DNA of 64,000 bases from NCBI GenBank assembly GCA_965248265.1, contig CBDFJF010000002.1:2208001-2272000 (forward strand), in the 5' to 3' direction. Below the pieces are notes generated by a model. It made no database searches, was not told the origin of the DNA, and worked only from the letters and a program-made list of their open reading frames with translations. The stretch comes from Candidatus Latescibacterota bacterium (GTDB taxonomy: Bacteria; Latescibacterota; UBA2968; UBA8231). The position numbers and the translations under genes are program-made. Below, one piece after another: positions 58-63,119 of this stretch; within the stretch, counting starts at the first letter, position 1, and the number at the start of each line of letters is the position of its first letter.

Positions 58-125
58 GAGAATAGACAAATAAGTGGCGTTATGGTGAGTTTAGATCCGT
101 CTGGGCCGTGGTGTCGAGCGCTTTT
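58..125 (-). mobile_element. IS91/ISCR-like oriIS end relic, copy 1 (divergent)
   Basis: gaatagacaaataagtggcgttatggtgagtttagatcc...gtggtgtcga aligns by eye with gaacgataagggcccgttatagggagtcaagatc...ttggtgtcga at 62131. Confidence 0.55.
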
Positions 126-411
126 TGAACGGCGGAAGCCGGGTTTGAGGCCATCGACGGGCATTGAGAAGGAGAGGAATCCAGGGCTGAGCGTGTTTTT
201 GTATCGGCCGCAGTTCTACTGCTGCGAAGACATGGACGGGGCACTCGAGCGGGCTCGCGCCGATGGCATCGAGCTCGACGAGGAGACGATCGAGCTCGCC
301 TCGATGAAGGAAAAGGGGTAGCTGAAGGAGATCGTGAAAAAGTACACCGCGCCGATGCAGGGCCTTGGCTGAAGCCACGGACGGCTTATCTGTCGGCGCC
401 TGAGCTCTCGC

Positions 412-1497
412 CTATCCGAGTCGCAGCGAGCGATCCTCCAATGGCAGATTGACCCGGACGTTTCCGCGGCGGTGGGATTCTCTCATGGCGATGGCGATCT
501 CCAGCGCTTCGCGGCCGAACTCGCCGGGGCAGATGCGCTCCTTCCCGGCATCGATCGAGCGGCAGACTCCTTCGATGGCGTCGACCATGGAGCTGCGCGG
601 ATGCCAGGGGTTGGGAAACTGGCGCTGCACCGACGCTCCCGTTTCAGGATCCGTCGTCCACAGCTCGAACTGCGCGTGAGCGTTGCGCGACACGATGCGG
701 CCGACGTCGCCTATGAACTCATGCGTCCATTGGCGACCGCCGTCACTCTCGGATCGTGAGTTGAGAAAACCTCGGACGCCGTTTTCGTACACGATGTACC
801 CGGAGCCGCACAGATCGCTCTCGGCGACCGCCTCTGCGTCGCTGTCCATGTGGCCGAAGACCCATTGGGCCGGAGCGTCGGCGAACAGTCGCATCAGAGA
901 GAGCATGTGGCTGCCCATGTTTGACAGACCTGAGGCGCTGTGGCAGATCATCGAGCGCAACTCGCCGATGGTGCCGTCGGCGATGGCCTGACGGGCGTTC
1001 GTATACCAGCCGTACCAGTTCAGGTGGCAGGCCATGGCGAGAATGGTGTTGTGTCGACGGCAGGCGTCGATCATGGCGTCCGCCTCGGCCAGGGTGCGAC
1101 ACATCGGTTTGGTGGCGAAGATCGCTTTCACGCCTGACTCGGCCAGACCGACGACGACATCGGCCCGCTCCGCCGGCCGCGTGGTCACGGCGACGAGATC
1201 CGGCTTCTCCTTCTCGACCATCTCGCGGTAGTCGAGGTAGAGCGCCTCGACCTTCCAGCGGCGGCGGAAGTCATCGAGCTTGGCCTGGTCGATGTCGGCC
1301 GCGGCCACGAGCTCGGCGCCGCGCGCCTCGATGATGGCCGGCGCGTGGGCCCACGGCCACGGATAGTGGGCCATGCCGATGTGCTCGTCGTCAATGGTGC
1401 TGCCCATGCGGCCGCAGCCGACGACGGCGGCGCGGTAGATTTTTGACGGCCGCGTCTCCTCGATAATGCGAAACGCTTCGCCTCGGACTCGAGCCAT
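412..1497 (-). CDS. Gfo/Idh/MocA family oxidoreductase
   Basis: AAVVGCGRMG Rossmann motif, ATKPM (EKP-like) motif, C-terminal ALEIAIAMRESHRRG. Confidence 0.9.
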   Translation of the reverse strand: MARVRGEAFRIIEETRPSKIYRAAVVGCGRMGSTIDDEHIGMAHYPWPWAHAPAIIEARGAELVAAADIDQAKLDDFRRRWKVEALYLDYREMVEKEKPDLVAVTTRPAERADVVVGLAESGVKAIFATKPMCRTLAEADAMIDACRRHNTILAMACHLNWYGWYTNARQAIADGTIGELRSMICHSASGLSNMGSHMLSLMRLFADAPAQWVFGHMDSDAEAVAESDLCGSGYIVYENGVRGFLNSRSESDGGRQWTHEFIGDVGRIVSRNAHAQFELWTTDPETGASVQRQFPNPWHPRSSMVDAIEGVCRSIDAGKERICPGEFGREALEIAIAMRESHRRGNVRVNLPLEDRSLRLG

Positions 1498-1523
1498 GAT
1501 TGCGGATTAGTCGAAAGACCGAC

Positions 1524-3161
1524 TCAAGCGCCGGCGACGTGCAGTTGGACGCCGTCCACGAGAATGGGCGTCTGCATCGACTCGTCCCGCCTGCTCAGCT
1601 TGAGCTCGAGCGTGTTCCCGCCGCGCCGGACCTGGGACGGGTCCAGTCCGCACTCCAGCCATCCACCTCCCTGCGCCGTCCTTGCGACGGACTGGACCTC
1701 CTCGAGGGGCCGGTTGTTCAAAGCCACATTCAGCTCGTCGCCGTCGGTGAGATCCCACAGGTGCAGACGGAATCGCAGCCTCTGCGGATCCGCCGACGAC
1801 AGATCGTCACCCACCTGGAACGACAGCTCGACCGGGCGCCCCGGCGTCAGCCCGACGTTTTCTGCGGTCTCGAACCGCCCGCGTTCGCCCGTGACCTCGT
1901 CTCCGAGAAACCGGTCGACCCCGAAGAGCTTCTCCTTGCCCGCCATCGTCTCGGGATCGCCGATCTCGAACCAGGTCTCGGGCACGCCGAGGCCCGGATT
2001 GAAAACGTAAACACCATCGGCACCGTCGTTGAAGACGTTCGTCGCCACCGCCCGCCACACCGCCGGCCGGCCCTCCCACTCGTTGAAGACGACGATGTAT
2101 GTGGGCTTGCCGAGGCGCTCTGGCTGGCCGCCGTAGAGCGTCTTGAGCCACGAACTGAAGGCCCTGTGCTCCCCAGCGCCCAGCGCCAGGTAGACCCACT
2201 GGCCCCAGAAGGCCCACTGCAGGCAGGGGTAGACCGGTACTTCGTGTCGGTGTCCGAAGTCGATGATATCGCGGAACGAGTCGCACATCGGTGAATCCTC
2301 GTTGCCGCCCGGCATCAGCTTATCGATCAGATTCTCGCCCAGCCAGGTCTCCAGGTCGACGCCGACGAACAGCGAGTCCTCGAGTGTGGCCGGCGTGTGT
2401 GCTGCCAGCAGCAGCGGCCGGCCTCTTCTGGCGCCGACCTCGTCGGCCATCCGGCGAATGCGGCGCACGAAGTCGTTCATCACTTCCACGTGCTCCTCGC
2501 TCACCGGCAGACCCTCGCGCGACTCGCGGAAGTACGGGTGGTACTTGAAAAATTCCATGGCGATGACGTCGACGTCGTAGTTCTCGGCCACTTCCTCGAT
2601 GACGGCGAAGTAGTGATCCCGCACCTCCTTGGCGCCGTAGTCGAGGCCCGACCACGCCTCGCCGGACTCGAAGTCATCCAGCTCGCCCATCATGCATTCG
2701 GGATGCTCGCGCTTGAACGGGGCGAGACCGTAGGAAGTCCAGCGTCTCGAACCCGGGGCGTAGGAGTCGTGGATGTCGTTCATGCGCAGCGACCAGCCGA
2801 ACTCCATGCCGTGCTCGCGGCTGAAGTCCTGCTGCACCTGCACCGTATCCTTGCCGTACTGGTCGATGAGCTCCTGCGGCATTCCCCTGCCGATGAAACC
2901 GCCCAGTTTCGTGTGGTGGGAGAACGTCAGACCCGCCATGCAGCTGCAGAACCAGTTGCTGTCCACCTGGGAGCCGATCAGCGGCGTGCTTCGCGCCTGC
3001 AGGAAGTCACCCATAAGCTCCCCGCTGGTGCGCACCGTCAGGCCCTCGGCGACGTCGTGTTCGCTCTCGGCGCCGTCACGCGCGTAGATGGCATCGTCGC
3101 CGTCGTTGTTGTAGATGATCCGCCGGCGTCTCCAGCGCGCTGCCCTTCGAGCTTCGTCCAC
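1524..3161 (-). CDS. Putative glycoside hydrolase (TIM-barrel, GH10/GHL-like) with C-terminal beta-sandwich
   Basis: RRRIIYNNDGDD N-terminus, SLRMNDIHD, LDYGAKEVRD..AENYDVDVIAMEF, DGVYVFN motifs; 545 aa. Confidence 0.65.
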   Translation of the reverse strand: MDEARRAARWRRRRIIYNNDGDDAIYARDGAESEHDVAEGLTVRTSGELMGDFLQARSTPLIGSQVDSNWFCSCMAGLTFSHHTKLGGFIGRGMPQELIDQYGKDTVQVQQDFSREHGMEFGWSLRMNDIHDSYAPGSRRWTSYGLAPFKREHPECMMGELDDFESGEAWSGLDYGAKEVRDHYFAVIEEVAENYDVDVIAMEFFKYHPYFRESREGLPVSEEHVEVMNDFVRRIRRMADEVGARRGRPLLLAAHTPATLEDSLFVGVDLETWLGENLIDKLMPGGNEDSPMCDSFRDIIDFGHRHEVPVYPCLQWAFWGQWVYLALGAGEHRAFSSWLKTLYGGQPERLGKPTYIVVFNEWEGRPAVWRAVATNVFNDGADGVYVFNPGLGVPETWFEIGDPETMAGKEKLFGVDRFLGDEVTGERGRFETAENVGLTPGRPVELSFQVGDDLSSADPQRLRFRLHLWDLTDGDELNVALNNRPLEEVQSVARTAQGGGWLECGLDPSQVRRGGNTLELKLSRRDESMQTPILVDGVQLHVAGA

Positions 3162-3255
3162 GACTCAGCCTTTCTGCATTTCTATGCGTGGCGTGTCAAA
3201 ATCCGCCATGGTCAGTTCAAATCGCGCCAGTAGTGCTCGAGCTCGACGGCTGCCG

Positions 3256-3480
3256 TCACCAGTCCACGACGGCACCGTCGTCTCCGCTGTACGATTCCGG
3301 ATTTGCCCCGTTATCCTCATCGCCGTTCCGCAGTGCGTCGTCGAGATAGTCGTCGTCGAGCTCGACACCCAGCCCCGGTCCGGTCGGCAGTTTGAGGAAT
3401 CCGTCCTCCACTGCGAACGGTTCCTTCAACACGCCTTCCCCCGGCCGCAATACGCCGGCTCCTTCCTGGATCAGGGAGTA
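3256..3480 (-). pseudogene. C-terminal fragment of mandelate racemase/galactonate dehydratase-like enolase-superfamily gene
   Basis: SLIQEG..GEGVLKEPFAVEDGFLKLPTGPGLGVELDD; the 5' part is missing, replaced by a repeat end at about 3480. Confidence 0.8.
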
Positions 3481-3560
3481 TAGGTCAAATAAGGAGTATT
3501 ATCGTTAGTCTATTTCGGTGGTGTTGTGTTGTCGAGGGGTATTCGAGGTGGTCTGACGGC
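3478..3560 (-). mobile_element. IS91/ISCR-like oriIS end relic, copy 2 (divergent)
   Basis: gtataggtcaaataaggagtattatcgttagtctatttc resembles copy 1 and the consensus; the minus strand ends ...ttgacctatac, like ISCR oriIS TTCCTATAC. Confidence 0.5.
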
Positions 3561-3819
3561 CGAACGAGCAGGTGTCGGTCCCGAACTGGCGGGTGTGAGG
3601 GTCGATTGGTTGAGCAGGGGCGGCCGATTGGCCGATGTCGGTAAATGCAAGGGCGGATTCGGGCGCAGGGCTTGCTCAGCGGACGCCAACGCCCGACTAT
3701 CACCGCCCCTGTATGATTGGCACGGGAAGCTCCACGACGTCGTCTACGGCGCCTGCTCGTTCCCGCCCTCGTGCCGGGTCGATGACCCGCAGACACAGGA
3801 AGGCGCCATTCTCGCGCAC

Positions 3820-3985: not shown

Positions 3986-3986
3986 C

Positions 3987-5972
3987 CTACCAGACGTGGA
4001 CGCGGTGGCCCTCGTCGGGGAACCAGATGCCGTCGACGATGCCGGACAGTGCTACGGCCGCAGCGTAACCCAGGCCTAATCCGTAGAACAGGGGCTTACC
4101 TCTCTGGTAAGCCTGCACCCCTCCGTAGCGCAGCAGGGCGGCCTTGATGACCCACACGAGGAGCAGGCTGAACCAGTAGTTTGCCGGGCCCGCGGCGTTC
4201 TGGAAGGCGAGACCGACTGGATGCAGCGGGAACCAGTGAAAGCGGCTGCGCAGATAGGCGAGAGCTCCGGCCTCTGACATGCCCGCCACCCACACGCCCC
4301 ACTTGCCGATGTCGAACACCCTGGGATGCTGCACCAGGTTGGCAGTCTGTGGGTAGACGTTGAAAGCGTGGATCAGGTGGACGGCGCCCCCCTGGTCGTA
4401 GGCGACTTCGATGCTGGCCCAGGCCGCCACCAGGCAGCCGATCGTGAAGGCGATGAGGACGACGGCGCAGACGCGGCCGCGTTGCCGGCGCAGCGAGAAT
4501 ATGCGCAGGTGGTGGGGGATCGCGGGCCAGGCCGGAAGGCGGATGTTGCCGAAGAAGGCCTGGCTCGTGAACAGCTTGAACGCCACCACGTTCTTCGTCG
4601 ATAGGATGCTGGAGCCGACCAGTTCGGTGATGAAGGAGCCGCCCTTCATGTTGGCCCAGCTCGGCATCAGGTAGGGGAAGCCCGTGGCGGCGATCAGCTT
4701 GACCGTGACGAAAAACGTCATCGCCATGAGCAGGAACGTGCACACGGCTAGGGGCACCGTCGCCCCGAGGCTGACGCCGAAGCCGATGACGTAAACGGCT
4801 GACAACGTCATTCCGATGAAAGCAAGCCGATACATTCCGACCTGTCCGGCATCGCCGGTGCCGCCCCTGACCTGTCGCCAGACCTGGCCGAGATGGCGTC
4901 GCGCCAGCCATACCGACCAGATGGCGATGAGGACGATGGCGCCGAAACTCTCCAGATGCAGGATGTCGGAACTGATCAAGCGCTGGCCGGAAGCGCCGAC
5001 GCTGACCCCGAATTGATCCATGGCCCCCAACTTGAAGACGGAGAGCAGGTAGAAGAGGATGATGCTGCCCAGGATGTCGAGCGGGCACAGGTAGGTCACC
5101 GCCAGCACAAGGGGCAGGATGCGGATGGTCAACGCCGGAAAGGGCTGCGGCAAGGGGATGGTGTAGCGCTCGCGGAAGACCTCCACCATGGGCGCGCCCG
5201 GGCTGAAATAGGTGGCGATGTTGTAGAGCAACGGCAGGAAGACGATGCCGAAGCCGGCCCAGAACAGACTGGAGCGGAACAGCTCCGGCATGCGCCGGGG
5301 ACCGTCGAAGCCGCGCGTCAGTTCGAGGGGCATCTGAGCCAGTGGAAAGGTGAGCTTCTCGTTGTCCACCCACTGGCGGTGGAAGAGGATCATCAGACAG
5401 AGTCCGAACACGACCATGGCCAGCGAAGCTCCGCCCCACTGCGCGATGATGCCGATCCACACGTCCCACGGAATTGAAGCGCCATCCGGCAGGCCCAGCC
5501 ACAGGGGATCGATGACGCGTGGCTCGGGCCCGGGAAAGGCGTTCCACGGCATGAAGGGGACGATGAGGGTGTCCCACTGGTTCTCCGGCGTCGGCATGAA
5601 GGACGGCGCGCCCAGTATGGCGACCCAGTAGTCGCTCCACCCCCACATCGGCAGCGCCCCGACGATCCAGGTCATCGAGAACACGGTGAGCAGCTCGCCG
5701 CGACTCAGGGCCACGCGCGGCCACACCCGTTTGAGGGCCACGTTGAAGAACAGCCACAGCACGAAGGGGATGACGGCCACCATCGGGTACTGCGACTGCA
5801 CGAGGTTGATCCCCATGAACAGGATCAGGTAATAGAACCAGACTGCGATGGTAACGGCCCCGACGAGGACTCCGCGCCAGGTGATCGTCAGCTTGTCGTC
5901 TTCGGCCGGTAAGTCAGACCCCCGACTCGCGTGGGGCTGGGTTACGTCAGCTGCTTGAGCGGGGTCGGGCAA
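3987..5972 (-). CDS. Polytopic membrane protein, DUF6785/DUF6784-like (putative OPT-like transporter)
   Basis: Many TM segments; TPENQW, RQWVDNEKLTFPL, WFPLHPVG, LRYGG motifs; paralog of 14614..16530. Confidence 0.8.
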   Translation of the reverse strand: MPDPAQAADVTQPHASRGSDLPAEDDKLTITWRGVLVGAVTIAVWFYYLILFMGINLVQSQYPMVAVIPFVLWLFFNVALKRVWPRVALSRGELLTVFSMTWIVGALPMWGWSDYWVAILGAPSFMPTPENQWDTLIVPFMPWNAFPGPEPRVIDPLWLGLPDGASIPWDVWIGIIAQWGGASLAMVVFGLCLMILFHRQWVDNEKLTFPLAQMPLELTRGFDGPRRMPELFRSSLFWAGFGIVFLPLLYNIATYFSPGAPMVEVFRERYTIPLPQPFPALTIRILPLVLAVTYLCPLDILGSIILFYLLSVFKLGAMDQFGVSVGASGQRLISSDILHLESFGAIVLIAIWSVWLARRHLGQVWRQVRGGTGDAGQVGMYRLAFIGMTLSAVYVIGFGVSLGATVPLAVCTFLLMAMTFFVTVKLIAATGFPYLMPSWANMKGGSFITELVGSSILSTKNVVAFKLFTSQAFFGNIRLPAWPAIPHHLRIFSLRRQRGRVCAVVLIAFTIGCLVAAWASIEVAYDQGGAVHLIHAFNVYPQTANLVQHPRVFDIGKWGVWVAGMSEAGALAYLRSRFHWFPLHPVGLAFQNAAGPANYWFSLLLVWVIKAALLRYGGVQAYQRGKPLFYGLGLGYAAAVALSGIVDGIWFPDEGHRVHVW

Positions 5973-14613: not shown

Positions 14614-16530
14614 CTACCATCCCCCCAGCGGAGAATTGCCCTGGTGACCGGTGACGTAGTCGATGACGAGCCAGGTCCCCGACGTGACGAAGGCCCCCAG
14701 GATCATCCCCATGAAAAGGTACCGGCTGTGGCTGTAAAGATTGCCGCCGCCATACTTCAGCACCACTACCTTGGTGAGCCAGGCGATGAAGACGCTGAAC
14801 CACATGAACCCGGAGGTAAATACAGTTCCGCTGATGGCCAGACCGAGGGGATGAACCGGCCACCAGGTGACGCGCTGCTGGACGAACATCAACAACCACA
14901 TGACGCCGGCGCCGAATCCGGTAAACAGCCAACCTGCCGCCTCCGTCACCGAGGGCGTCTGGATCATGGCGGCGATGTAGGTCAGGGGAAAACTGGAGGA
15001 ATGTTTCCAGAACCAGGGCGACAGGTTGATGCCGCCGCGCGTGTACGACAGGTGGATGACCATCCAACCGGAGGCGCACAGCGTAACGACGACAGCCAGC
15101 ATCATCCCCAAGAACGCCGCTCGCCGCTCTCTGCCGATGAACTCGGAGACCATCCTGAGTCCGTTGGCGGCTGCCGCCATCGGGAACGTGACGATGTCGG
15201 CCGTCCACGGATAGGTGTATGCCAGGCCGGTGAGGCCGGCGCCACCCAGCGTCGACGTGCCGAAGCTCGCCATGACAAAATCGGGAGCGATCAGCGGCGC
15301 TCGCAGCAGGGCGACCCCGGCCTCGACGACGATGCGTGTTATGGCCAGAAACAGCAACAACGCCACGGTGAGAAAAACCGGTACGACGAACAGCGGTATG
15401 CCTGCCGCGTTGAGCCACAAGAGCATGACCGCCAGTCCGGCTAGCAGGCCGAACACGGCGGCCCTGTAAGACAGGATTTCGTCGTCATCCCTCACGCTGT
15501 CGTCACCGGTGAACGCCTTGCGAAGGACATCTCGCAGGTGGGATCGCGCGTTCCACAAGACGAAAAGGGCGAACATCAACATGGCGCCCAGAGCCTGATG
15601 GGTGAGAAAGGGGGAGCTCGGGTTGCTGAACCATCCGAGTCGCTCGCTGGTCTGGAAACCGACGACGTTGAACAACTCCTGTTCCAGCAAGGTCAGCCAA
15701 TAGAAGAGCCAGATTCCCAGCGCGAGAGACTGGTGGATGAAGTAGGAGAAGCCGGTCAACGGGAAGGAAAAGTGCAAGGGGACATTGCGGTCGCGAAAAA
15801 CATCCAGGGACGTGGTGAGGTGAACGCTCGGCACGGACGGGAAGTAGCTGCTCAACCCGTTGAGTGTTCCCACGAGGACCGGCAGGGCAAAACCGACCCA
15901 CATGACGGTGTTGCGGAAAAACCGCGATTCGCCTGAGGCCATGCGCGCCGGACCGACCAGCTCCATCGCCGTGAGCATCATCGGGTAGGCGAGACGCTCG
16001 CGTTCCATCCATTGCCGGCGCACGATCACGACTACACAGATGGACACGAGATAGAGGGCCAGCAGGAACAGGAGCCACCATGAGAGCGACTCGAGCCAAC
16101 CCCCCCAGGGAATCGATTCTCCGAGTGGCATACCTTCGTAGAATCCCCTGATCAATTGCGGGTCGCTCGGCGCTATCCAGGTGGGAATGTGCGGGTGGAT
16201 GAGGGTCTCCCAGTTGTTCTCAGGGGTCGCGTAGTAGAAAGCGCCAGTGATCATCGGCAGCAGATGCTGGACCAGGCCGAACGTCGGAATCGAAGCGGAG
16301 ACGAGCATCATCACGAAGATCAAGGCCAGCTCTTCGCGTTTCAGAGCCAGCTGCCGCGACGCGCGGCGGACGAGCAGGTTGGCCGCCACGAGATAGAAGA
16401 GCAGGAAGAACGCCACCGGGCTGGCGAAGCTGGATGCCATGAAGGTGCCGCGGATGATGTTGCGGGCGTAGGGCGTTCCGGCCCCTATCAGGAGGCTGAG
16501 CAGAGAGCCGATCAGGAGTGCTCTGAGCAT
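14614..16530 (-). CDS. Polytopic membrane protein, DUF6785/DUF6784-like
   Basis: YYATPENNW, RRQWMERERLAYPM, WWPVHPLG, LKYGG; RBS ggagga. Confidence 0.8.
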   Translation of the reverse strand: MLRALLIGSLLSLLIGAGTPYARNIIRGTFMASSFASPVAFFLLFYLVAANLLVRRASRQLALKREELALIFVMMLVSASIPTFGLVQHLLPMITGAFYYATPENNWETLIHPHIPTWIAPSDPQLIRGFYEGMPLGESIPWGGWLESLSWWLLFLLALYLVSICVVVIVRRQWMERERLAYPMMLTAMELVGPARMASGESRFFRNTVMWVGFALPVLVGTLNGLSSYFPSVPSVHLTTSLDVFRDRNVPLHFSFPLTGFSYFIHQSLALGIWLFYWLTLLEQELFNVVGFQTSERLGWFSNPSSPFLTHQALGAMLMFALFVLWNARSHLRDVLRKAFTGDDSVRDDDEILSYRAAVFGLLAGLAVMLLWLNAAGIPLFVVPVFLTVALLLFLAITRIVVEAGVALLRAPLIAPDFVMASFGTSTLGGAGLTGLAYTYPWTADIVTFPMAAAANGLRMVSEFIGRERRAAFLGMMLAVVVTLCASGWMVIHLSYTRGGINLSPWFWKHSSSFPLTYIAAMIQTPSVTEAAGWLFTGFGAGVMWLLMFVQQRVTWWPVHPLGLAISGTVFTSGFMWFSVFIAWLTKVVVLKYGGGNLYSHSRYLFMGMILGAFVTSGTWLVIDYVTGHQGNSPLGGW

Positions 16531-16546
16531 GGGGCTCAGGTCCTCC

Positions 16547-16670
16547 TCACATGATGAATTCGTGCACGTCGTCGAGCCAGGCGAATCCCTCCGCATTGTC
16601 CAACTTGTAGGCTCCACCCATCAAAAAGATCCGATCTTCGGTGGCGGCTGCCGGCATCCAGGCTTTCTTG
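16547..16670 (-). pseudogene. C-terminal fragment of a Kelch-repeat gene
   Basis: KKAWMPAAATEDRIFLMGGAY..GFAWLDDVHEF matches the C-terminus of 46775..47698 (AKAWLAACAVGEKIFAMGGAY..GFKWIHDLHEY). Confidence 0.7.
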
Positions 16671-19264: not shown

Positions 19265-19394
19265 CCGCAGTGACCGGCGTCGCTGTTGGATGAACGTTGC
19301 TTCAGTTTCCAACAGGCTCAGCAACGTGCCCGAAGGTTTGCCCAAGTCGTGAGATCGCATCCAGCGGAAGCGGGCCTTTCTCAATGTGCACGTC
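19265..19394 (-). repeat. Degenerate duplicate of the 3' end and downstream flank of the aldo/keto reductase at 23389..23523
   Basis: ccgcagtgaccggcgtcgct...cttcagtttccaacagg...tttgcccaagtcgtgagatcgca occurs at both places; both encode IEKGPLP..AISRLGQTFGH.AEPVGN*. Confidence 0.9.
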
Positions 19395-19416
19395 TTCTGA
19401 GCTGATAGGACGCCCT

Positions 19417-19490
19417 GCGTTGAGTTTGAAGCGGGTGCTGCATATCGGCTCGTACCAGACCGCCTGGGCGATGCTACACCGGCTGCTCGG
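19417..19490 (+). mobile_element. IS1595-family transposase fragment
   Basis: ALSLKRVLHIGSYQTAWAMLHRL is the HTH segment typical of IS1595 transposases. Confidence 0.7.
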
Positions 19491-19492
19491 TG

Positions 19493-19742
19493 ACGGATAG
19501 CAACGATTAGGGACCATTACCGATAGACCAAACCGGCGGTTGAGGGCTGCGTTGGGGCGATCGAGGTGTGGGTGGGATGGTTTGGCGGGGGATGAGTGTC
19601 GTGGTCGGGCGACGACCCTCACCCGCCCCCGCAAGCCCAAAGTACCCATCCCGTCCATCACAAAAGCTCAGATTTTCATTCAACACCAAGCCGCGCGGGC
19701 GATCTTGACTACCTGTAACGGGCCCTTATCGTTCTTATCCGT
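19493..19742. mobile_element. 250-bp MITE-like unit made of two outward-facing IS91-like oriIS ends (copies 3 and 4)
   Basis: Left end acggatagcaacgattagggaccattac; right end, reverse-complemented, acggataagaacgataagggcccgttac. The left half matches 22607..22735; the right half matches 55813..55922. Confidence 0.75.
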
Positions 19743-19786
19743 GATAGTCGAGACGAGCCGTGTAGCGGTGGCGGCGGGTCGAGCGG

Positions 19787-19966
19787 GCTTACAGCTACTG
19801 CGCCAGCAACGACCCTCGTGTCCACTGCGGGTTGGGAGCCGCGACGGTGGTGGACAAGGTCACCGTGTACTGGTCGGACGGCACCACGAGCGAATTCGGA
19901 CCTCTCGAGGTCGACGGACTCACGTCCTCCACCGAGACTAGGAGCCTGTCCGAGTATTCGCTTTGA
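19787..19966 (+). pseudogene. C-terminal ASPIC/UnbV (CRTAC1-like) domain fragment
   Basis: Unlisted frame reads AYSYCASNDPRVHCGLGAATVVDKVTVYWSDG. Confidence 0.75.
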
Positions 19967-20024
19967 CAGGCGGCATTACAGAATTCTCAGCGAAACAGGA
20001 GCCACGGCAGCTTCTGAAGCTCTC

Positions 20025-22601: not shown

Positions 22602-22606
22602 CCAAA

Positions 22607-23392
22607 ACGGATAGCAACGATCTCTTTAGGCCATTACCAATAGTCCAAAACGGCGGTTGAGTGCTTGGTTGGTGCGATTGGGGTGTGGGTGGGATGGTTT
22701 GGCGGGGGATGGGTGTCGTGGTCTGGCGACGACGGGCGCCCGGTGGGGAAGGTGGGGGCGGATTTTCTGCGATCTTAGCCGGTTTTGAGGCCGACGGATC
22801 AGAGCTGGACGCAGCCGTGCCCGGGCGCGCGGCCGTCGCATGTGCCGTGGCCTGGATTCAACCGCGCTGAACTCGAGCTTGGTTTGCGGCGGTGATCTCG
22901 GTGGCGCGATGGGTGGCGGTTGATCGGGCAGGACCCACGCCCTGCAGGTATCGACGAATGGAGGCGGGCTCGGTAAGGGCGGCGATGACCCGCATGCGTC
23001 CGCCACAGCGATCGCAGGTGCTGACGTCGATGGAAAAAACCCTCGCCAGCAGGACAGCCCACGCGAGTCTTTGCGGCATGTGGTGGGGGCACGGATCGCG
23101 GTCCTCGCCGCACGGCTCGGGGGGCTCCTGCTGCGGCACGATCTTGTCGCGGTCGCGGGCGCTGGGGGCGAGGATGCCATGATAGCGGATGAGATTGACC
23201 CGGGGTGGAGGCACGAGGGCGGCGAGTTTTTCCAGCAACTCATGGGGCGTGACACCGTGCACGGAGGCGGCGGTGAGGGCGGCCAGCAGGGGCTCCTAGT
23301 CGGCGAGGGGATCGGCCTGGGAATCGTCGAGCAGGCCGCGTTTGGTGCACAGCCGGATGACGCGACGAGCCGTGGTCTCGACGATCTGCCGC
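22607..23392 (-). mobile_element. IS91/ISCR-family (Y2 HUH) transposase relic with its oriIS end (copy 5)
   Basis: RRVIRLCTKRGLL..PLLAALTAASVHG joined to ELLEKLAALVPPPRVNLIRYHGILAP..WAVLLARVFSIDVSTCDRCGGRMRVIA; internal stop, deletion and frameshift; the minus strand ends gatcgttgctatccgt. Confidence 0.85.
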
Positions 23393-23426
23393 AGTGACCG
23401 GCGTCGCTCTTGGATTGAACGCTGCT

Positions 23427-24395: not shown

Positions 24396-24593
24396 CCTGA
24401 ATCCTCCTCCTGCGCTCCAGCGCCTTGACAGAGAATCGATTATAGGCCCTTATACTCCTGACGGTCGGAGCGCGAAACACAGATGCTGTGACGGTAAACG
24501 ACGACTTGGCGCACCTACGCGCCCCTCAAAGGTGATACGACACGCGGGCTGCAATGCGCATTGAATCACCCTATCTGTCTAGGAGAAAAGAGT

Positions 24594-55469: not shown

Positions 55470-55771
55470 AGGCGGGATTCTGTGAGTCGAGGATTGCGGC
55501 GAGTTGCTGGGACAGATTAGCAGGAATTCACACTGAGTGTCAAGAAGTCCGCGTGCCATCGGGCCCGAAGGCGACGTCTATTGGATGCTAGTGGACAGGG
55601 CTTGTGGCCACCGCCGAACGGCGTGGTGCGGTCCGGCAGACCTTTTCTTTCTCAACAACACCAAATAACCGATGCTGACTCCCGATTGAATAGTGGTTGG
55701 GCGGTAGAAACGACATCGACGTTGTCGGCATTTTCCGTCTCACAGGAACACGACAAAGAAGGGATCGACAG

Positions 55772-55812
55772 ATGAGCTCAGAGATCAGGGACGAGAGGTA
55801 CCGGCAGGTACG
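55772..55812 (+). pseudogene. Gene start (MSSEIRDERYRQV) cut by a repeat end
   Basis: RBS-like gaaggga then ATG at 55772; the frame runs into the oriIS-like end. Confidence 0.35.
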
Positions 55813-55922
55813 GAACGATAAGGGCCTAAAGAGATAGGTAGTCAAGATCTACTCGGAGCCTGGTGTCGAATGAAAATCTGAACTTTTTGATGGACGGGAT
55901 GGTTACCTTGGGCTTACGGGGG
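55808..55922 (-). mobile_element. IS91/ISCR-like oriIS end relic, copy 6
   Basis: gaacgataagggcc..aggtagtcaagatc..tggtgtcgaatgaaaatctgaactttttgatggacgggatgg, highly similar to the reverse complement of 19620..19734. Confidence 0.75.
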
Positions 55923-56072
55923 CTTGTTCAGGCGTGAATTCAGGCCCCGACTTGGTTTCGATGGCACTGTTACAGACCCGCAAGGTCGGTTCAGGCGCAT
56001 CGATGGTGACCATCCGTCTGCCGCGCAAGGCCCAGATGCCCGAGGAGGGGAAGGCGGCGGGCAGCTGAGGGA

Positions 56073-57497
56073 TCACTGAAGCAGCAGCAGCTTCCGCGTC
56101 GCCTCCCATCCGTCCACCCGCAGCCGGTACAGATACAGCCCCGATCCCAGCGCCCGTCCACCGGCATCACGGCCGTCCCAACGGACGGCGTGACGCCCCG
56201 CCGGCAACTCACCCCTCACCAGCGTCGCCACCTGCTGCCCCGCTGCGTTGTAGACGGACAGCTCAGCCGACGCCCGCTTGCCGATAGTGAAACGGATCGC
56301 CGTGCCGCTGTTGAACGGATTGGGAAAGCTCTGCTGCAGCTCGTTGTCCCGCGGTAACGTCGGTGCCGGCCCCTCCGCTACGGCTGTGACGTACTGCCTC
56401 GGGTCGTGCGCGGTCAGCATGGCGTCGCGGTAGGCATCGGGCAGGATTACCGTGTCAGACCGCACGTCCCAGAGACTGGTATGGTGCGAGTAGATCCAGA
56501 CGTACTCGTCCGCGTGCTCGAGAGCGGCACCTAGTGCCGTCGTCAGCTCCTCGGGCGAGTAGTAGTTGGCGGAGAAATCATCTGTCGAAAACCCGTGCGA
56601 GCCGATGAAGATGGGGAAGCCGATCTGGGCGTGACGGTCCCATTTGTCCGGCACCCGGCTGTACTGGCGCATATCCCTGAACCGACCCGCTGCTCTCTCG
56701 AACTGCCACAGTCTCTTGTATTCGTACGAGCGCCCCGAGCCGTCGATGATGGCGGCGTCGCCGGTACATTCCGACAGCAGGCCGTCGAAGAAGGCGCGGA
56801 TCATCTCGTAGTGTCGGTCTGCCTGTCGCCCCCCGGTGAGAAGCAACGGCTGCGTCGGTCCGTGCACGGAGAGGATGTGGATGTCCGGATAGACCGTGTT
56901 GACGGCGCGCATGATCTGCGCTCCACGCTCGAAGACGATGTCGTAGTACTCCTCCGCCGTCGTCGTGTCCTTGTACTTGAGATCCTCGTAGCTCCACAGA
57001 TCGCGCCCATAGTAGATCTCGTCGTCGAAGAGGAAACCGCGCATGCCCGCCGCCTTGCAGTACTCGGCCGCGACCTTCCAGTTGTTGATGACGGCGTCGA
57101 ACCCGGGATCTAGCCAGTCCGGCACCTCGAGGCCGTGGACCCCGGATGCCAGATAGACGAGGAGGAAATTGTGTCTGTAGAGATTCGTGCGGGCCCGGCG
57201 CATGTGATCGATGCCGGTGTCGAAGTCCTCGAGGCGGTGGAAGTCTACGCGGAACAGGCGGCCCAGGGCCTCGGTGGCCACGCCGCCCTTGTCGGTGGCC
57301 GGGTAGATGGTCACGCCATCGACGACGGGCATCCGGCGCTCCAGCTCCTGAACATCGTCGTGGAAGCGGCGGGCATTGGGGGTGCCGCTGAACGAGATGA
57401 CCTTCTTCGTTACCTCTGACTGAGCCAGGACGGATGTGACGAAAGGCAGAGTCACAGCGGCACAGATGAGGACGAGAACTCCGCGAATCCTTGCCAT
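56073..57497 (-). CDS. Secreted TIM-barrel hydrolase-like protein with FlgD-Ig / T9SS type A-like C-terminal domain
   Basis: Signal peptide; GFLFDDEIY, YVWIYS; VTAV..QSFPNPFN..VYNAAGQQVATL..WDGRD..SGLYLYRL..KLLLLQ. Confidence 0.85.
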   Translation of the reverse strand: MARIRGVLVLICAAVTLPFVTSVLAQSEVTKKVISFSGTPNARRFHDDVQELERRMPVVDGVTIYPATDKGGVATEALGRLFRVDFHRLEDFDTGIDHMRRARTNLYRHNFLLVYLASGVHGLEVPDWLDPGFDAVINNWKVAAEYCKAAGMRGFLFDDEIYYGRDLWSYEDLKYKDTTTAEEYYDIVFERGAQIMRAVNTVYPDIHILSVHGPTQPLLLTGGRQADRHYEMIRAFFDGLLSECTGDAAIIDGSGRSYEYKRLWQFERAAGRFRDMRQYSRVPDKWDRHAQIGFPIFIGSHGFSTDDFSANYYSPEELTTALGAALEHADEYVWIYSHHTSLWDVRSDTVILPDAYRDAMLTAHDPRQYVTAVAEGPAPTLPRDNELQQSFPNPFNSGTAIRFTIGKRASAELSVYNAAGQQVATLVRGELPAGRHAVRWDGRDAGGRALGSGLYLYRLRVDGWEATRKLLLLQ

Positions 57498-57506
57498 CGC
57501 ACGCTC

Positions 57507-57795
57507 CTACAGTATGGACGCTGAAAACGGCCGCGGCCCCCACTTCCTGCTCTATCGCCAGAGCCAGGTCATCGGAGACCGGCTGGTCCACCTTCATGAT
57601 GACGAGTGACTGCCAGGTCTGTACGTCGAGGGTGTTGCGCATCTCCTCGATGTTGACGCCGGCCTCACCCAGTTTGACGCCCAGGGCGCCGATGACGCCG
57701 GGGCGATCCTCGTACATGCACAGCAGCACATTGCCCGAGGGCTCGAAGTAGAGCCGGTCGAACTGGTTGATCCGCGACACGCACGATCGTGCCCA
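57507..57795 (-). pseudogene. serA: D-3-phosphoglycerate dehydrogenase C-terminal ACT-domain fragment
   Basis: RINQFDRLYFEPSGNVLLCMYEDRPGVIGALGVKLGEAGVNIEEMR; the 5' part is replaced by a repeat end. Confidence 0.65.
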
Positions 57796-57796
57796 A

Positions 57797-57877
57797 GGAT
57801 ATGAACGATAAGGGGCCCGTTAATAGGTAGTCAAGATCTACTCGGGGCCTGGGTCGAATGAAAATCTGAACTTTTTG
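57797..57877 (-). mobile_element. IS91/ISCR-like oriIS end relic, copy 7
   Basis: ggatatgaacgataaggggcccgttaataggtagtcaagatctactcggggcctgggtcgaatgaaaatctgaactttttg, near-identical to copy 6. Confidence 0.78.
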
Positions 57878-57891
57878 CTGCACCGGCGAGA

Positions 57892-57926
57892 GAGACGGGG
57901 ACCTAACGGGCCGTTTCGACGCAACG
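57892..57926. repeat. 35-bp dispersed repeat (second copy at 63120..63154)
   Basis: gagacggggacctaacgggccgtttcgacgcaacg vs gagacggggacctaacgggccgttttcacgcaacg. Confidence 0.85.
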
Positions 57927-57984
57927 CGATGGAATCAACATCCAGGTTGGCGGCGACGCCATCAGGTTCAGTTCGAGAAGATCT

Positions 57985-58254
57985 CTGTTCGAGTCCGTCG
58001 ACGCCGTACAGAATGTCCACAAATTAGTCCGCCCTGGAGTGGACTGCGTCTCTTTCGGGCCAACCGATCTAGCCCTCAGTCTAGACTCACATCCGAATCA
58101 TGGTTTGAAATCGGTCGAAGACTGCGTGGCGTACGCCGTCAAGTCACTCGAAGGCACCGGCGTCGGGGTCTGTTTCCGCACCTATTCACCCGATGTCAGG
58201 CAGCAGTACTGGGACCTCGGAGTCCAGGTAGTGCTCGAGCAGCCGAAGGTCTGA
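57985..58254 (+). pseudogene. HpcH/HpaI aldolase-like C-terminal fragment
   Basis: FESVDAVQNVHKLVRPGVDCVSFGPTDLALSL. Confidence 0.65.
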
Positions 58255-58622
58255 TCGGGGAAGTGGCTGTGGGAAGTCAAGGACGCTGACCGATCACCGA
58301 TCCCAGATCATTTCATATCCGCTAGAGCACAGATGGTCATGGCGCAGTCGGAGCTATAGGACAGACGCATTGGCGATGGCGCGTTGCGATGGTCACCCGG
58401 TCGGGGGCTCCATAGACCATCCCCTTCCTGATATCCGAGCAGGACGTCTCCGAGGGCACGGGCGCGCTCGACAAGTCGAGGATCACCGGTCTCGGCGTGC
58501 AGGTTCAGCATGGACCAGCCGAATTTCGTAGCGCGATGGCATACACCCGGTTTCCAGCGGCAAGTCAAAGCCGAATTCGCCGTCGTCGTCGATGAGATGC
58601 CCATTCACGTACCGCGCAACGC
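58099..58622. repeat. Direct repeat copy A of 60348..61330, lacking an internal segment of about 490 bp
   Basis: 58099..58254 = 60348..60503; 58291..58535 = 60508..60752; 58536..58622 = 61243..61330; few substitutions. Confidence 0.92.
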
Positions 58623-58789
58623 AGGAAGGTTGGAACTTCGAGGACATGAAAGGCCCCTTCAGCGGCGACAGCACAGCCGCCGCCCTGCGCTGGGACGGCA
58701 AGGGTTTCGATCAGCTGAAGGGGCAGGCGGTGCGGCTGCACTTCTGGCTGCAGGATGCCGAGCTCTACTCGTGGGGCTTCCAGCGCTGA
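58623..58789 (+). pseudogene. C-terminal fragment of a beta-propeller hydrolase-like gene
   Basis: EGWNFEDMKGPFSGDSTAAALRW..LKGQAVRLHFWLQDAELYS matches the tails of the 16864/29486/52676 proteins. Confidence 0.7.
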
Positions 58790-58799
58790 GATCGTACCC

Positions 58800-60062
58800 T
58801 CAGCCGGTTTCCCATATCGGCCCATCCTGCTCCTGCAGCTGCCTCCAGATGCGGTCGAAGTCCTCGCTGCCGTCATCCTCGCGCTCGTCGAGCCGTATGC
58901 CAGGGGCGTAGGCGTCGTCGACGCCCAGTTTCATCAGATTCTCCGCCTGCTGGAGATTGCGGTAGTAGTGCTTCACTCCGCCGGGCAGCGAGACCACCGA
59001 AAACCAGCGCTTCCAGTCCGGCTCGGGCTCGTCGCTGTAGCGCTTAACGGCGTCTTCGTCGAGCTCGACCCCAAGGCCCGGACCTTCAGGCACCTTCATG
59101 AAACCGCGCTGGACCGGGTGTTCCTCCGTGATCAGGTCGTCGACGTAGGCGTGACTGCACGTCACGCCGGGCAGCATCGCCGTGTGCATGACCGCGCCCA
59201 GCTGACACGCGAAGGCGGCCGTGATCCCGTTCCCGGCGTACTGCAGCAGGATCGGTGTGTTCGCGGAAGCGAAGGTCCACGAAGCGGCGATGGCATTGCG
59301 GATATTCTCATGACTGCACAGGGCCCCGTCGTAGTCGCCGGCACGCAGCCCCAGCCAGGGGCCCGAGGGCTGTCGCGTCGGCCCGTCGAGGACGGTGCCC
59401 ACCCCGTGCAGGTAGAAGGGGATGCGGCTCTGCCGGTGCAGCCGTCGCCAGCCTTCGACGTCGTGAGCGAAGATGGGCTCTTCCAGGCCTTTGACGACGG
59501 GGATCTTCTCGAGCTCGCGCACGATCGGCAGTGCCTTTTCGACGTTGATCAGAGAGCCGTTGAAGTCGAATTCGACGCGGAAGTCGGGCGGGGCCGCCTC
59601 CTGCATCGCCTGCGCCTGCTCGATGATGTCATAGAAAGCGCGCGCCTTGCACTTGAGGCCTCTGTAGCCGCGCGCGGCCGCCTCCGCCACCTCGGCGGCA
59701 GAGTCCTCCGGTGACATGCACGGCATCCACCATCCCATGCTCACCCACTGGCGCCGCTGCTGGCCCCACAGTTTCCATGCGGGTATGCCGAGGTGCTTGC
59801 CCATAAGGTCGTAACAAGCCATGTCGAGGTTGAACAGGCCCGTGTCCATGGCGTGGTCGAAGGGATCAGTGCCCAGATACGGATCGAGAACATCCTGCGC
59901 GAACGGCCCACCCGGGTTTTCACCGAGGCCGACGAGTCCGTTATCGGTGTGGAACTTGCAGACTGTCACCTCCTCCCGCATGGCGAAGTGGTGGTATTGC
60001 GTGCGGATGCGGTCTTCGTAGGGCACGCGCAGCGGGATCACTTCTATATCGGTGATCTTCAT
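58800..60062 (-). CDS. Mandelate racemase/muconate lactonising enzyme family protein
   Basis: MKITDIEVIPL, HTDNGLVGLGE, DMACYDLMGK, GYRGLKCK, DFN, LEEP, VPEGPGLGVELD. Confidence 0.88.
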   Translation of the reverse strand: MKITDIEVIPLRVPYEDRIRTQYHHFAMREEVTVCKFHTDNGLVGLGENPGGPFAQDVLDPYLGTDPFDHAMDTGLFNLDMACYDLMGKHLGIPAWKLWGQQRRQWVSMGWWMPCMSPEDSAAEVAEAAARGYRGLKCKARAFYDIIEQAQAMQEAAPPDFRVEFDFNGSLINVEKALPIVRELEKIPVVKGLEEPIFAHDVEGWRRLHRQSRIPFYLHGVGTVLDGPTRQPSGPWLGLRAGDYDGALCSHENIRNAIAASWTFASANTPILLQYAGNGITAAFACQLGAVMHTAMLPGVTCSHAYVDDLITEEHPVQRGFMKVPEGPGLGVELDEDAVKRYSDEPEPDWKRWFSVVSLPGGVKHYYRNLQQAENLMKLGVDDAYAPGIRLDEREDDGSEDFDRIWRQLQEQDGPIWETG

Positions 60063-60151
60063 GTGAGAGCTCCCTTGGACCTTTGGCTTGCAATACGAGC
60101 GAATATGCTGCAATTCTGTTCCCAGACCAGCAACCATTCGGGGGGACTATC

Positions 60152-60349
60152 GTGGACAGCAGACTGGACCTGCAGGATCGCGTCGCCATCGTCACCGGCG
60201 CAGCGCGAGGGATTGGCCGCAAGATCGCCGAGGATTTCATCTCTCACGGAGCGACGTCGTCGTCGGTGATATCCTCGACGAGGTGGGAAAGCAAACGGCT
60301 GACGAGCTCGGAGCGGCGGCGTCCTTCGTGCACTGCGACATCAGCGACA
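60152..60349 (+). pseudogene. SDR N-terminal fragment (frameshifted, truncated)
   Basis: LQDRVAIVTGAARGIGRKIA then VVVGDILDEVG..FVHCDISD; joined to the repeat at 60348. Confidence 0.8.
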
Positions 60350-60503
60350 TGGTTTGAAATCGGTCGAAGACTGCGTGGCGTACGCCGTCAAGTCACTCGA
60401 AGGCACCGGCGTCGGGGTCTGTTTCCGCTCCTATTCACCCGATGTCAGGCAGCAGTACTGGGACCTCGGAGTCCAGGTAGTGCTCGAGCAGCCGAAGGTC
60501 TGA
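60348..60503 (+). repeat. Second copy of the aldolase 3' fragment (start of direct repeat copy B)
   Basis: Near-identical to 58099..58254. Confidence 0.9.
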
Positions 60504-60524
60504 CGATCGATCACTGATCCCAGA

Positions 60525-61490
60525 TCATTTCATATCCGCTAGAGCACAGATGGTCATGGCGCAGTCGGAGCTATAGGACAGACGCATTGGCGATGGCGCG
60601 TTGCGATGGTCACCCGGTCGGGGGCTCCATAGACCATCCCCTTCCTGATATCCGAGCAGGACGTCTCCGAGGGCACGGGCGCGCTCGACAAGTCGAGGAT
60701 CACCGGTATCGGCGTGCAGGTTCAGCATGGACCAGCCGAATTTCGTGGCGCGGCCGAAGTGGGCCGGATCGAGACGGTGGCTGTAGACGATGTCGACGTA
60801 ACGAGCTGCGCTCTCAAAGTAGCGCGGTTCACCGGTCGCCCGACCCACCCAGACCAGGGTGTTGATCACGGTGGCGAAGGTGGCGGGTCGCTGCTCATCC
60901 AGCGTCGAGTCGAATCGCTTGTCCCACTCAGCAGAGGCTGGGTGGGCCACGACAGTCCCGTCGCGCCGGTAGCGGTTGTAGAACCGTCCGGGCTCCGGCT
61001 GTGCCCCGAGGATGGCAGTGAACCCGTCGGCCATGCGACGAGCGGGCTCCGTCCTGCCGGCGGCGATCAGGCCCATGCCGGCGCCGCCCGAGAAGCAAAC
61101 CTCTGCGACTTCCTCTCCGGCGTCTTCGTCCGGCAACACCATCCCCCCGCAGCAAGGGTCCTGACGTTGTTCGAGGGCGTTGACCATGCTCGCGGCTAGG
61201 TCGTACTGCTCAGTGGCGACAGCACCCAATGCCAGCCAACCCATGGCATACACCCGGTTTTCCAGCGGCAAGTCAAAGCCGAATTCGCCGTCGTCGTCGA
61301 TGAGATGCCCATTCACGTACCTCGCAACGCGGGCGCCAAGGCTCCGGGCCCCGCAGGCAGCGGCCAGGTAGGGCACCTTGTAGTAGGCGCCGCCATTATC
61401 GGGAGCTTCGACGAACCTGCCGTCCGCGTCGAAACGTTCATCTAGCCAGCAACGGACGCGGTTGCGGGCCTCAACGAAGCGGTCACTCAT
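60525..61490 (-). CDS. Hypothetical protein, predicted (alpha/alpha)6 barrel
   Basis: 321 aa, RBS ggag; helical repeats ATGEPRY, DTGDPRL, YQEGDGLW. Confidence 0.65.
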   Translation of the reverse strand: MSDRFVEARNRVRCWLDERFDADGRFVEAPDNGGAYYKVPYLAAACGARSLGARVARYVNGHLIDDDGEFGFDLPLENRVYAMGWLALGAVATEQYDLAASMVNALEQRQDPCCGGMVLPDEDAGEEVAEVCFSGGAGMGLIAAGRTEPARRMADGFTAILGAQPEPGRFYNRYRRDGTVVAHPASAEWDKRFDSTLDEQRPATFATVINTLVWVGRATGEPRYFESAARYVDIVYSHRLDPAHFGRATKFGWSMLNLHADTGDPRLVERARALGDVLLGYQEGDGLWSPRPGDHRNAPSPMRLSYSSDCAMTICALADMK

Positions 61491-61609
61491 GTGTCAAGCT
61501 CCGGTCACTCCAGGGCCTTGGCGATTTTCTTTGAGTAGTCGTTCCACACATCCCAATCGCTTCTCCTAGTTTCTTCCCTTTGATGCTACCGCCGCAGGGG
61601 AACGTCATC

Positions 61610-61740
61610 TTGACTGAAAGCTGGCAGCCGCTGGACAAGGAGGGTACCGCCTGGGGTCAGATGCTCAGCCGGCACGGCGTTCATACCAGATGATCCGGGA
61701 CACGCCCATGCAGGCCATGGACTGCATGGAGATCAACAGC
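61610..61740 (+). pseudogene. Possible internal sulfatase fragment
   Basis: SWQPLDKEGTAWGQMLSRHGVHT / MIRDTPM across a frameshift. Confidence 0.3.
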
Positions 61741-61926
61741 AAGCGCGATCCGCTCTACCGTAAGTGGTTATAAACAGCATTGTCGTTCGTCTGTCAACAG
61801 GATTTCGAGCGAGAACGACACTCCCGTGGACGCAGCTTGAACCACGGCCCTCCCGTGGCTATTGTGTCGGCCTGACCCGGCGCGCCAGGCCGTGCCTCGC
61901 CGCCATCCCCTTCTCCCCTCGCGAGC

Positions 61927-62125
61927 GTGGGCCAATTCCGATCCCCCGGCACCGGCTGTACCTACCGCGGACTCATCGTCGGCACCCTCGGGTGCATCGT
62001 CGTCGTGGCGGGGTTCAACTACTCCACCTACGTTCTCCACGTCGGGGCTTGGTCCACCTGGCACTACGCGATCGGCGCCAACCTCATGCTGTTCCTGATG
62101 GTGCTGGTCTTGAACCCCCTGGGGG
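61927..62125 (+). pseudogene. N-terminal fragment of a DUF6785-like membrane protein
   Basis: TYRGLIVGTLGCIVV..NLMLFLMVLVLNPL resembles the N-termini of 3987..5972 and 14614..16530; cut by a repeat end. Confidence 0.6.
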
Positions 62126-62210
62126 ACGAGGAACGATAAGGGCCCGTTATAGGGAGTCAAGATCGCTTGCGGCTTGGTGTCGACTGAAAGCTTGAGGCTT
62201 TTTGAGGGGT
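62125..62210 (-). mobile_element. IS91/ISCR-like oriIS end relic, copy 8
   Basis: gaggaacgataagggcccgttatagggagtcaagatcgcttgcggcttggtgtcgactgaaagcttgaggctttttga. Confidence 0.75.
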
Positions 62211-63118: not shown

Positions 63119-63119
63119 C

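Follow-up and report, generated by a model that had tools for sequence, protein, structure and literature searches.

Eight short repeats in a 64-kb stretch of a Latescibacterota genome are probably origin-side ends of ISCR-like IS91-family elements

A stretch of 64,000 nucleotides (nt) from the genome of a Candidatus Latescibacterota bacterium (assembly GCA_965248265.1), hereafter called the window, contains eight related short repeats. An earlier sequence-only reading had described them as IS91/ISCR-like oriIS ends that mark gene breakpoints and shuffle genes. We followed up this reading by computational analysis of the whole genome of 7.32 Mb, which is assembled in two contigs (3.18 and 4.14 Mb) named C1 and C2, the window being C2:2208001-2272000. 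Positions in the window are numbered from its first letter, and the prefixes C1: and C2: denote contig coordinates. The most probable explanation, in our judgement, is that the eight repeats are the oriIS-side ends of ISCR-like rolling-circle insertion sequences (ISs) of the IS91 family, reduced to stumps partly by transposition that stopped early and partly by later deletion and recombination.

All eight sites are present at, or within 3 nt of, the positions first given for them, and their termini lie at 58, 3476-3478, 19490, 19745 (minus strand), 22607, 55808, 57797 and 62122-62125. They are mutually alignable over 60-130 nt, and seven of them share one orientation. Seven are without transposase sequence, the IS-derived part being about 90-240 nt in length. 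The exact 19-nt core, with up to three mismatches allowed, occurs only twice, at 19716-19734 (minus) and 62131-62149 (plus), against 0.01 expected; since it recovers just two of the eight sites, the family is diverged and a profile is needed to detect it. The nhmmer profile used for the window was built from 31 copies, all lying outside the window to avoid circularity, and 20 shuffled windows, whose best score was 6.5 bits, served as the null. This profile recovered seven of the eight sites, at 62128 (E 1.3e-27), 19743 (5.6e-23), 64 (3.4e-17), 55810 (3.9e-15), 57794 (2.8e-13), 3477 (3.9e-6) and 19493 (2.3e-3). The copy at 22607 was not recovered by it and is tied to the family by its identity of 86-87% to 19493-19625. 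Genome-wide, an iterated profile search gave 63 ends. Most copies are intact at the terminus, start with G(G/T)ATAGG and have N-A-C-G or G-A-G just outside, and an ATAA-N(4-11)-TTAT-like motif was found in 43 of the 63. The imperfect palindrome around GGGCCC that had been ascribed to the family is seen in the B-type copies and not in the others. The coordinates of the window copies and of two neighbouring features are given in Table 1.

Table 1. Origin-type ends and neighbouring features in the window
Position	Strand	Feature	Remarks
58..200	+	Solo ori-type end, about 143 nt	Terminus 58, inner side rightward; no transposase
3476..3714	+	Solo ori-type end, 239 nt	99.2% copy of C2:2204649-2204887, the latter with a transposase C-terminal stub
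19490..19616	+	A-type ori end	Left half of a 255-bp inverted doublet
19617..19745	-	B-type ori end	Right half of the doublet; terminus 19745
22607..23394	-	A-type ori end and Y2 transposase relic	Ori part 22607-22742
55808..56004	+	Solo B-type ori end, 197 nt	87% identity with C2:2793883-2794069, where a transposase stub is present
57797..57886	+	Solo B-type ori end, about 90 nt	A 35-mer, 57892-57926, comes next; second copy at 63120-63154
62122..62257	+	Solo B-type ori end, about 133 nt	95-96% identity with C2:1212273-1212401 and C2:1217290-1217417
62257..63119	-	IS481-family copy, truncated	Abuts the inner side of the 62122 end; unrelated to the ori ends
19265..19397	+	133-nt copy, 90%	Of 23389-23525, the 3' end of an aldo/keto reductase gene plus 38 nt

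The assignment of the repeats draws on the transposases that some of them accompany. The Y2_Tnp domain (PF04986) gave 16 matches in the genome, four of them in open reading frames (ORFs) of 486-534 amino acids (aa), and all four long ORFs carry both Zn_Tnp_IS91 (PF14319, E 1e-17 to 1e-19) and PF04986 (E 1e-26 to 1e-28). Among the NCBIfam models, 'ISCR element clade Ia' scores them highest (E about 1e-112, nearly full length, 375-391 bits), and the IS91 equivalog model (transpos_IS91) scores them lower, at 103-106 bits. The H-x-H motif and the LCRY tyrosine are shared with an IS91-family transposase from a plasmid; no second catalytic tyrosine could be recognised in these proteins. Past the stops of these transposase genes, and likewise past those of several relics, termini of the kind seen in the window lie at a distance of about 130-250 nt. 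Their sequence on the transposase strand is ...CTTGACT.ACCGATAA...TTATCC or ...TAATGGTGCTTTATCGGTCCTATAC, and the window copies end ...CTTATCC or ...GCTATCC.

To quantify this association, we counted the ends for which the 3' end of a transposase gene, in the correct orientation, is found 50-450 nt inward. Eleven of the 63 ends were so linked, whereas 1000 random-placement trials gave a mean of 0.074 and a maximum of 2, which bears out the identification as IS91/ISCR ori ends. A transposase with a matching 3' end, which the sequence-only reading had proposed to look for, exists in the long ORF C2:1842375-1843835: it carries a family member (nhmmer E 2.9e-11), and the element ends ...GGTCCTATAC about 221 nt past the transposase stop. 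In the window itself, an ISCR-like Y2 transposase relic with a broken frame lies at 22921-23394 on the minus strand; it covers about aa 215-473, aa 1-214 giving no alignment, and PF04986 matches it at 22861-23295 (E 7e-6). The 22607 end is situated 126-252 nt past the stop of this relic, downstream of it as had been noted. No flank duplication was seen at two 239-nt mini copies, read on both sides, or at the 255-bp doublet, in agreement with the earlier remark on target duplications.

A plasmid-borne relative permits a closer comparison. The element beside qepA4 in Escherichia coli (NZ_CP076306.1, IS91 family/ISCR) has a transposase 41.5% identical to those described here over 91% of the length. 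It reads ...GAACTTCCTATAC (noted also as ...CTTCCTATAC) 242 nt past the stop, so that its last eight letters and their position are like those of the C2:1842375 element. Beyond these last letters the ends and the plasmid locus are not significantly alike, the genome profiles scoring E > 0.5. The terminal oriIS motif of ISCR elements is ...TTCCTATAC, and we take the stretch of the plasmid element to correspond to this consensus. Unlike the plasmid ISCR elements, the copies studied here belong to a marine host, in which tens of chromosomal stumps lie by carbohydrate- and sulfatase-type genes and not by resistance genes.

The elements also share several traits with IS91 and IS1294, namely the zinc-binding domain at the N terminus of a Y2 HUH transposase, the location of the ori end 3' of the transposase gene, the lack of a visible target duplication and a short conserved context at the ori junction; they differ from IS91 in that their similarity to its equivalog model is weaker than to ISCR. 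In PMC13181058, the IS91 family is described as having distinct oriIS and terIS ends, making no target duplication and inserting with the target tetranucleotide abutting oriIS; no more than 82 bp of the ori end is required, mobilisation takes place in trans, and termination fails, giving one-ended products, in 1-10% of events. PMC3189936 reports for IS801 of Pseudomonas syringae that right (ori) end fragments of 229, 360 and 679 nt make up 26% of the insertions, that these are made by one-ended transposition and are movable in trans, and that pieces of a neighbouring gene are found in 0.7% of insertions. The window stumps resemble these mini fragments in being transposase-less ori-end pieces with intact termini. 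They are unlike them in having no common inner end, whereas the IS801 fragments stop at a defined tetranucleotide resembling the left end, and in being known here from sequence alone. ISCR elements are IS91 relatives with outward promoters in oriIS, according to PMC6218425 and PMC13393415, the former of which states that ISCR transposition has not been experimentally demonstrated.

The window family thus fits known mobile-DNA debris, that is, origin stumps of ISCR/IS91 elements, and what is new is an environmental example of it. ISCR and IS91 have been studied almost only on resistance and virulence plasmids, and the present host is non-clinical; its genome, with long-ORF transposases, near-identical mini-ends and a few capture-like structures, is well suited as a natural system in which to study how these elements begin, terminate prematurely and take adjacent DNA along. 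A consequence for annotation is that some 60 short repeats, along with many gene fragments, are to be counted as mobile-element debris and not as regulatory or unknown elements. As a separate observation, the B-type ends show by eye, on the transposase strand, TTGACT, a 16-nt spacer and TATCGT pointing outward, at 19700-19745, 55808-55850, 57797-57840 and 62125-62165; these sites resemble the outward promoters of the ISCR1 oriIS region.

Several points weigh against this assignment or its details. The curated NCBIfam cut-offs, 925 bits for ISCR clade Ia and 125 bits for IS91, are missed by all four transposases, which are distant family members and not of a named clade, and the C-terminal parts deviate in two of the four long ORFs. 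The regions upstream of six transposase genes (the four long ORFs and two broken ones) were read, and two of them share homology from about 110-250 nt before the ORF; no ter boundary, and hence no complete element boundary, could be defined in these six regions. The near-full transposase closest to the B-type ends, C2:2465593-2467049, is frame-broken, so that these stumps would depend on a heterologous transposase. The subterminal palindrome is weak, and the fold energy of the first 44 nt of the ends, calculated with RNA parameters, is no better than that of shuffles (mean z 0.17). The conserved ACG/GAG before the terminus may belong to the target or to the element, three junctions with paralog-defined borders placing it inside the element; in the IS91 family the target tetranucleotide abutting oriIS, given for the transposase strand, is GTTC, CTTG or GTCC. 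Where recent truncated copies stop on the inner side, they read ...CTGTAT, ...CAAAATA and ...GGCCGAG, with no obvious common tetranucleotide. Finally, Bardaji et al. (PMC3189936) attribute most IS801 fragments in finished genomes to reorganisation and not to one-ended transposition.

The state of the elements gives a clue to the origin of the stumps. A tblastn search of the genome revealed 50 transposase loci, of which 6 are near-full, 35 retain only the C-terminal (ori-proximal) part and 9 are without the C-terminus. In the genome map, C-terminal transposase stubs also appear about 1.05-1.07 Mb upstream of the window. The ends on C2 form blocks of the same orientation (15 runs against 27.8 expected, P = 0.0003). 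Some stumps are very similar to one another. The homology between 3476-3714 and its counterpart at C2:2204649-2204887 begins at the terminus and stops after 239 nt, beyond which the latter continues into its transposase stub. Two other 239-nt mini-ends, C2:2691338-2691576 and C2:2692496-2692734, are 100% identical, and the first 160 nt of these units are 99.4% identical to the end of the element C2:1842375-1843835. The two C2 copies of the 62122 end have slightly different truncation points. That non-autonomous ends are mobilised in trans, as had been suggested, is consistent with these transposase-less copies of 99-100% identity, which fit either mobilisation or abortive copying.

A similar picture was obtained from 30 related genomes. 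Y2_Tnp was found in 12 of the 30, with 40 matches in G018 and 19 in G015, and 57 of the 83 matches, by our reading, are confined to the C-terminal part of the domain; in some cases an N-terminal and a C-terminal piece may be halves of one frame-shifted gene. In G018 and G015, two complete genomes of the same family as the host, most matches are C-terminal pieces, so that populations rich in ISCR-like stumps seem to be common among members of this family. None of the 30 relatives is closer than about 70% identity, and no orthologous empty site was readable in them; B-type DNA gave only weak matches, in 2 of the 30.

We propose the following course of events. A full element has a Y2/HUH transposase gene, whose stop is followed at about 130-250 nt by the ori terminus. 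If IS91 and IS801 are a guide, the transposase would nick the ori terminus, and a single strand would be peeled inward through the transposase gene toward ter. Most copies in this genome retain the ori end alone or the ori end with the last 30-100 transposase codons. Part of the stumps may be early-terminated products of one-ended transposition, like the three IS801 fragment classes mentioned above, and the remainder may have been produced by later deletions and by recombinations between the many copies. Copying of some stumps would be recent, with the few long-ORF transposases presumably acting on them in trans. In this view, genes broken at the window termini would be insertion sites, often in redundant gene copies, of which the other halves were deleted, and genuine carriage of gene pieces probably happens but is rare.

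An alternative that dispenses with copying of stumps is pure debris, in which every stump derives from a full-length insertion by deletion or homologous recombination. The varying inner truncation points without a common end motif are in line with it, as is the IS801 attribution of Bardaji et al. Locally, the end at 62122 is cut by an unrelated and itself truncated IS481-family copy, and segmental duplications and deletions are seen around 58-61.3 kb. Random deletion would leave ter-side remnants about as often as ori-side ones, so the 35 C-terminal-only loci against 9 without the C-terminus count against it. In addition, short copies of 99-100% identity, whose homology runs from the terminus to 239 nt between unrelated flanks, are hard to obtain via deletion alone. 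We therefore regard pure debris as rather unlikely as the whole explanation.

The claim that the termini mark gene breakpoints was examined in the window and genome-wide. Seven of the eight termini had been said to abut a broken gene, and broken genes were verified at five, namely 58, 3478, 19490, 19745 and 62125. Short gene pieces in the flanks were typed by within-genome BLAST, Pfam being mostly silent on short flank frames. At 58, the flank (up to base 57) forms the last part of a 697-nt copy, 96.3% identical, of the 5' portion of C2:1230495-1232033, an intact gene of 513 codons; the homology stops at the terminus. Next to 3478 there is a C-terminal piece of an enolase-superfamily gene (3256-3450, minus), and next to 19490 a 76-nt piece of an IS1595-family transposase gene (19417-19492, 86% to C2:188015-188092). 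Beside 19745 lies a C-terminal piece of an FG-GAP/UnbV_ASPIC gene (19760-19949), followed by a spermine-synthase-domain gene as at the paralogous locus C2:1357500-1361500. At 62122, the flank (61953-62121) duplicates, with 95.9% identity, the N-terminal part of C1:863827-865869, an intact DUF6785 gene. The serA-like call at 57797 is weak, with an ACT domain match of E 6e-4, below the Pfam cut-off. The eighth terminus, 22607, does sit 5 bp past an intact stop codon, that of a 927-aa gene (19818-22601), as had been observed; the end at 55808, beside which the cut gene start at 55772 is putative, reaches to within 69 nt of the 3' end of the gene 56073-57497.

For the genome-wide test, a coding-like frame was defined as at least 30 codons with a third-position G+C content (GC3) of at least 0.70. 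By this crude criterion, applied without gene models, 27 of the 63 termini abut such a frame compared with 66% of 3000 random positions. Termini are thus rarer at coding-like frames than random positions are, and the claim that they mark gene breakpoints beyond chance was not supported. Moreover, the gene pieces in the window lie on the outer, that is, target side of the termini, so they are not what one-ended transposition carries. The window flanks are accounted for equally well if the elements inserted into redundant gene copies and deletions then took place.

The sequence-only reading went further and held that the ori-only ends are an active, Helitron-like system that copies gene pieces and built this region. 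Helitrons are HUH rolling-circle elements with many non-autonomous copies that capture gene fragments by read-through, and the logic here would be the same. The comparison has limits, as the present elements have no Rep/helicase fusion protein and are of the size of bacterial ISs, and the case for capture rests on a handful of structures. We searched for DNA copies elsewhere (at least 88% identity, at least 60 nt) of the outer flanks that end between -8 and +6 nt from a terminus. Such copies were found at 5 of 64 termini, compared with 4 of 630 positions drawn at random. The window accounts for two of the five, at 58 and 62125, each being a partial copy (96%) of a gene with an intact version elsewhere; one of the five represents an insertion nested in another transposase stub.

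The structure most suggestive of capture lies outside the window, at C2:2691338-2692734, where a 919-nt internal fragment of an 856-codon gene is placed exactly between the two identical 239-nt mini-ends in direct orientation. The fragment is 96.4% identical to C2:1237880-1238799, and the intact gene is C2:1236851-1239418. Read-through from a mini-end, or integration of a circle carrying ori and cargo, would give such a structure. A partial extra ori terminus is seen just before the first 239-nt unit. A whole GFO/IDH/MocA gene is contained in a 1256-nt segment that recurs, with 99% identity, at C1:1462954-1464209 and C2:2206016-2207270; both copies are inward of an ori end and have their neighbouring pieces in permuted order, but the ori ends beside them are of different subfamilies. 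It may be mentioned in addition that, in the larger regions C1:1462954-1464810 and C2:2204649-2208057, this oxidoreductase segment and pieces of the 513-codon gene are permuted, which could reflect a circular or tandem intermediate. A shared unit of ori end and GFO gene (58-1497 against C2:2788385-2789687) was considered and rejected, because the gene alone is homologous (82%) and the ends are not.

Assembly of the region from gene pieces is therefore suggested by the flank copies and by the 919-nt structure, the latter outside the window, and is opposed by the outer position of the window pieces, which would require an extra step, tandem insertion beside an existing ori. The lower frequency of coding-like frames at termini than at random positions is also against it. 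About 30 kb in mid-window (24-55 kb) contain a single duplicated segment (24407-25741, 90.5% to C1) and otherwise ordinary genes, and no circle junction or empty site was seen. Taken in full, the claim of an active shuffling system that built the region appears doubtful. Scarcely better is the chance that the stumps are still active, pick up internal gene pieces and stack head-to-tail at termini, as a bacterial counterpart of Helitron-type shuffling that acts on metabolic genes and not on resistance genes; we put this forward as a speculation.

Origin ends of ISCR-like elements remain our preferred explanation over two further possibilities. The doublet at 19490-19745 and the other copies might be miniature inverted-repeat transposable elements moved by a DDE cut-and-paste transposase, because the doublet measures 255 bp and has 26-nt look-alike ends in inverted orientation. 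It is the single doublet, however; its A-type half has only two copies, both in the window, and every other copy consists of one end only. In addition, the ends are found 3' to Y2 transposase genes, the doublet lacks a flank duplication, and neither many doublets with target duplications nor a DDE element with the same ends was found in this genome. This origin is very improbable.

Still less credible are assembly chimeras, with contigs joined at a repeat. Short-read contigs break at some repeat borders, and some of their loose ends are absent from the assembly. The genome is nevertheless in just two contigs, and the repeats, being short (90-240 nt) and 72-96% alike, are too short and diverged to mislead such an assembly. 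At 57797, the junction looked at for such an error, a 934-nt short-read contig from three runs of one sample spans 56979-57912 without differences, the sample being possibly the assembly's own source and thus not independent support. The remaining junctions do not appear among the listed contigs. One run's contig departs from the window sequence at 57801, small word shares were obtained in seawater metagenomes, and parts of 55500-63500 match none of the contigs listed; none of these observations is interpretable. Among the short-read contigs of the isolate's sample, loose ends were seen at 57883, 62131 and 63120, four loose-end strings being absent from the assembly, so that the sample holds variant or unassembled arrangements at repeat borders.

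Three other candidates were rejected. The ORF 62157-63074 is not the cognate transposase, since it belongs to the unrelated IS481-family copy cut at 62257. The 35-mer next to the 57797 end does not qualify as a ter end, because its two copies are the only ones in the genome. An attC/integron site or a repetitive extragenic palindromic (REP) element was dismissed on reading the letters, as GTTA...TAAC is in the wrong order for attC and the repeats sit 3' of Y2 transposase genes.

The IS481-family element is about 1.3 kb in length with inverted ends of about 50 nt and occurs at eight other loci, e.g. C1:966098-966961; among the blastn matches listed, the copies are 99.8-100% identical. The window copy is without about 440 nt on the transposase-3' side. 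The element looks recently active, and its short-read depth is about 10 times that of its neighbours, in line with the copy number.

The 133-nt sequence at 19265-19397 and its counterpart at 23389-23525 form a direct repeat that brackets the whole IS-laden stretch 19398-23388, which sits between convergent DHDPS and aldo/keto reductase genes. The repeat resembles an extremely long target duplication or a vestige of insertion mediated by recombination. A local duplication, 57989-58625/60275-61333, comprises an aldolase-like fragment and a 321-aa gene, intact at 60525-61490; the copy of this gene at 58288-58625 lacks about 490 internal nt, and both copies flank an enolase-superfamily gene. Paralogous sets of heparinase II/III-like genes and of an unnamed 494-aa protein, with about 71-76% nucleotide identity, are found in direct and inverted arrangement at 11111-13375/30975-33398 and 16786-18270/29486-30970. 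Two DUF6785+DUF6784 genes lie at 3987-5972 and 14614-16617, and the region looks like a polysaccharide-use gene neighbourhood.

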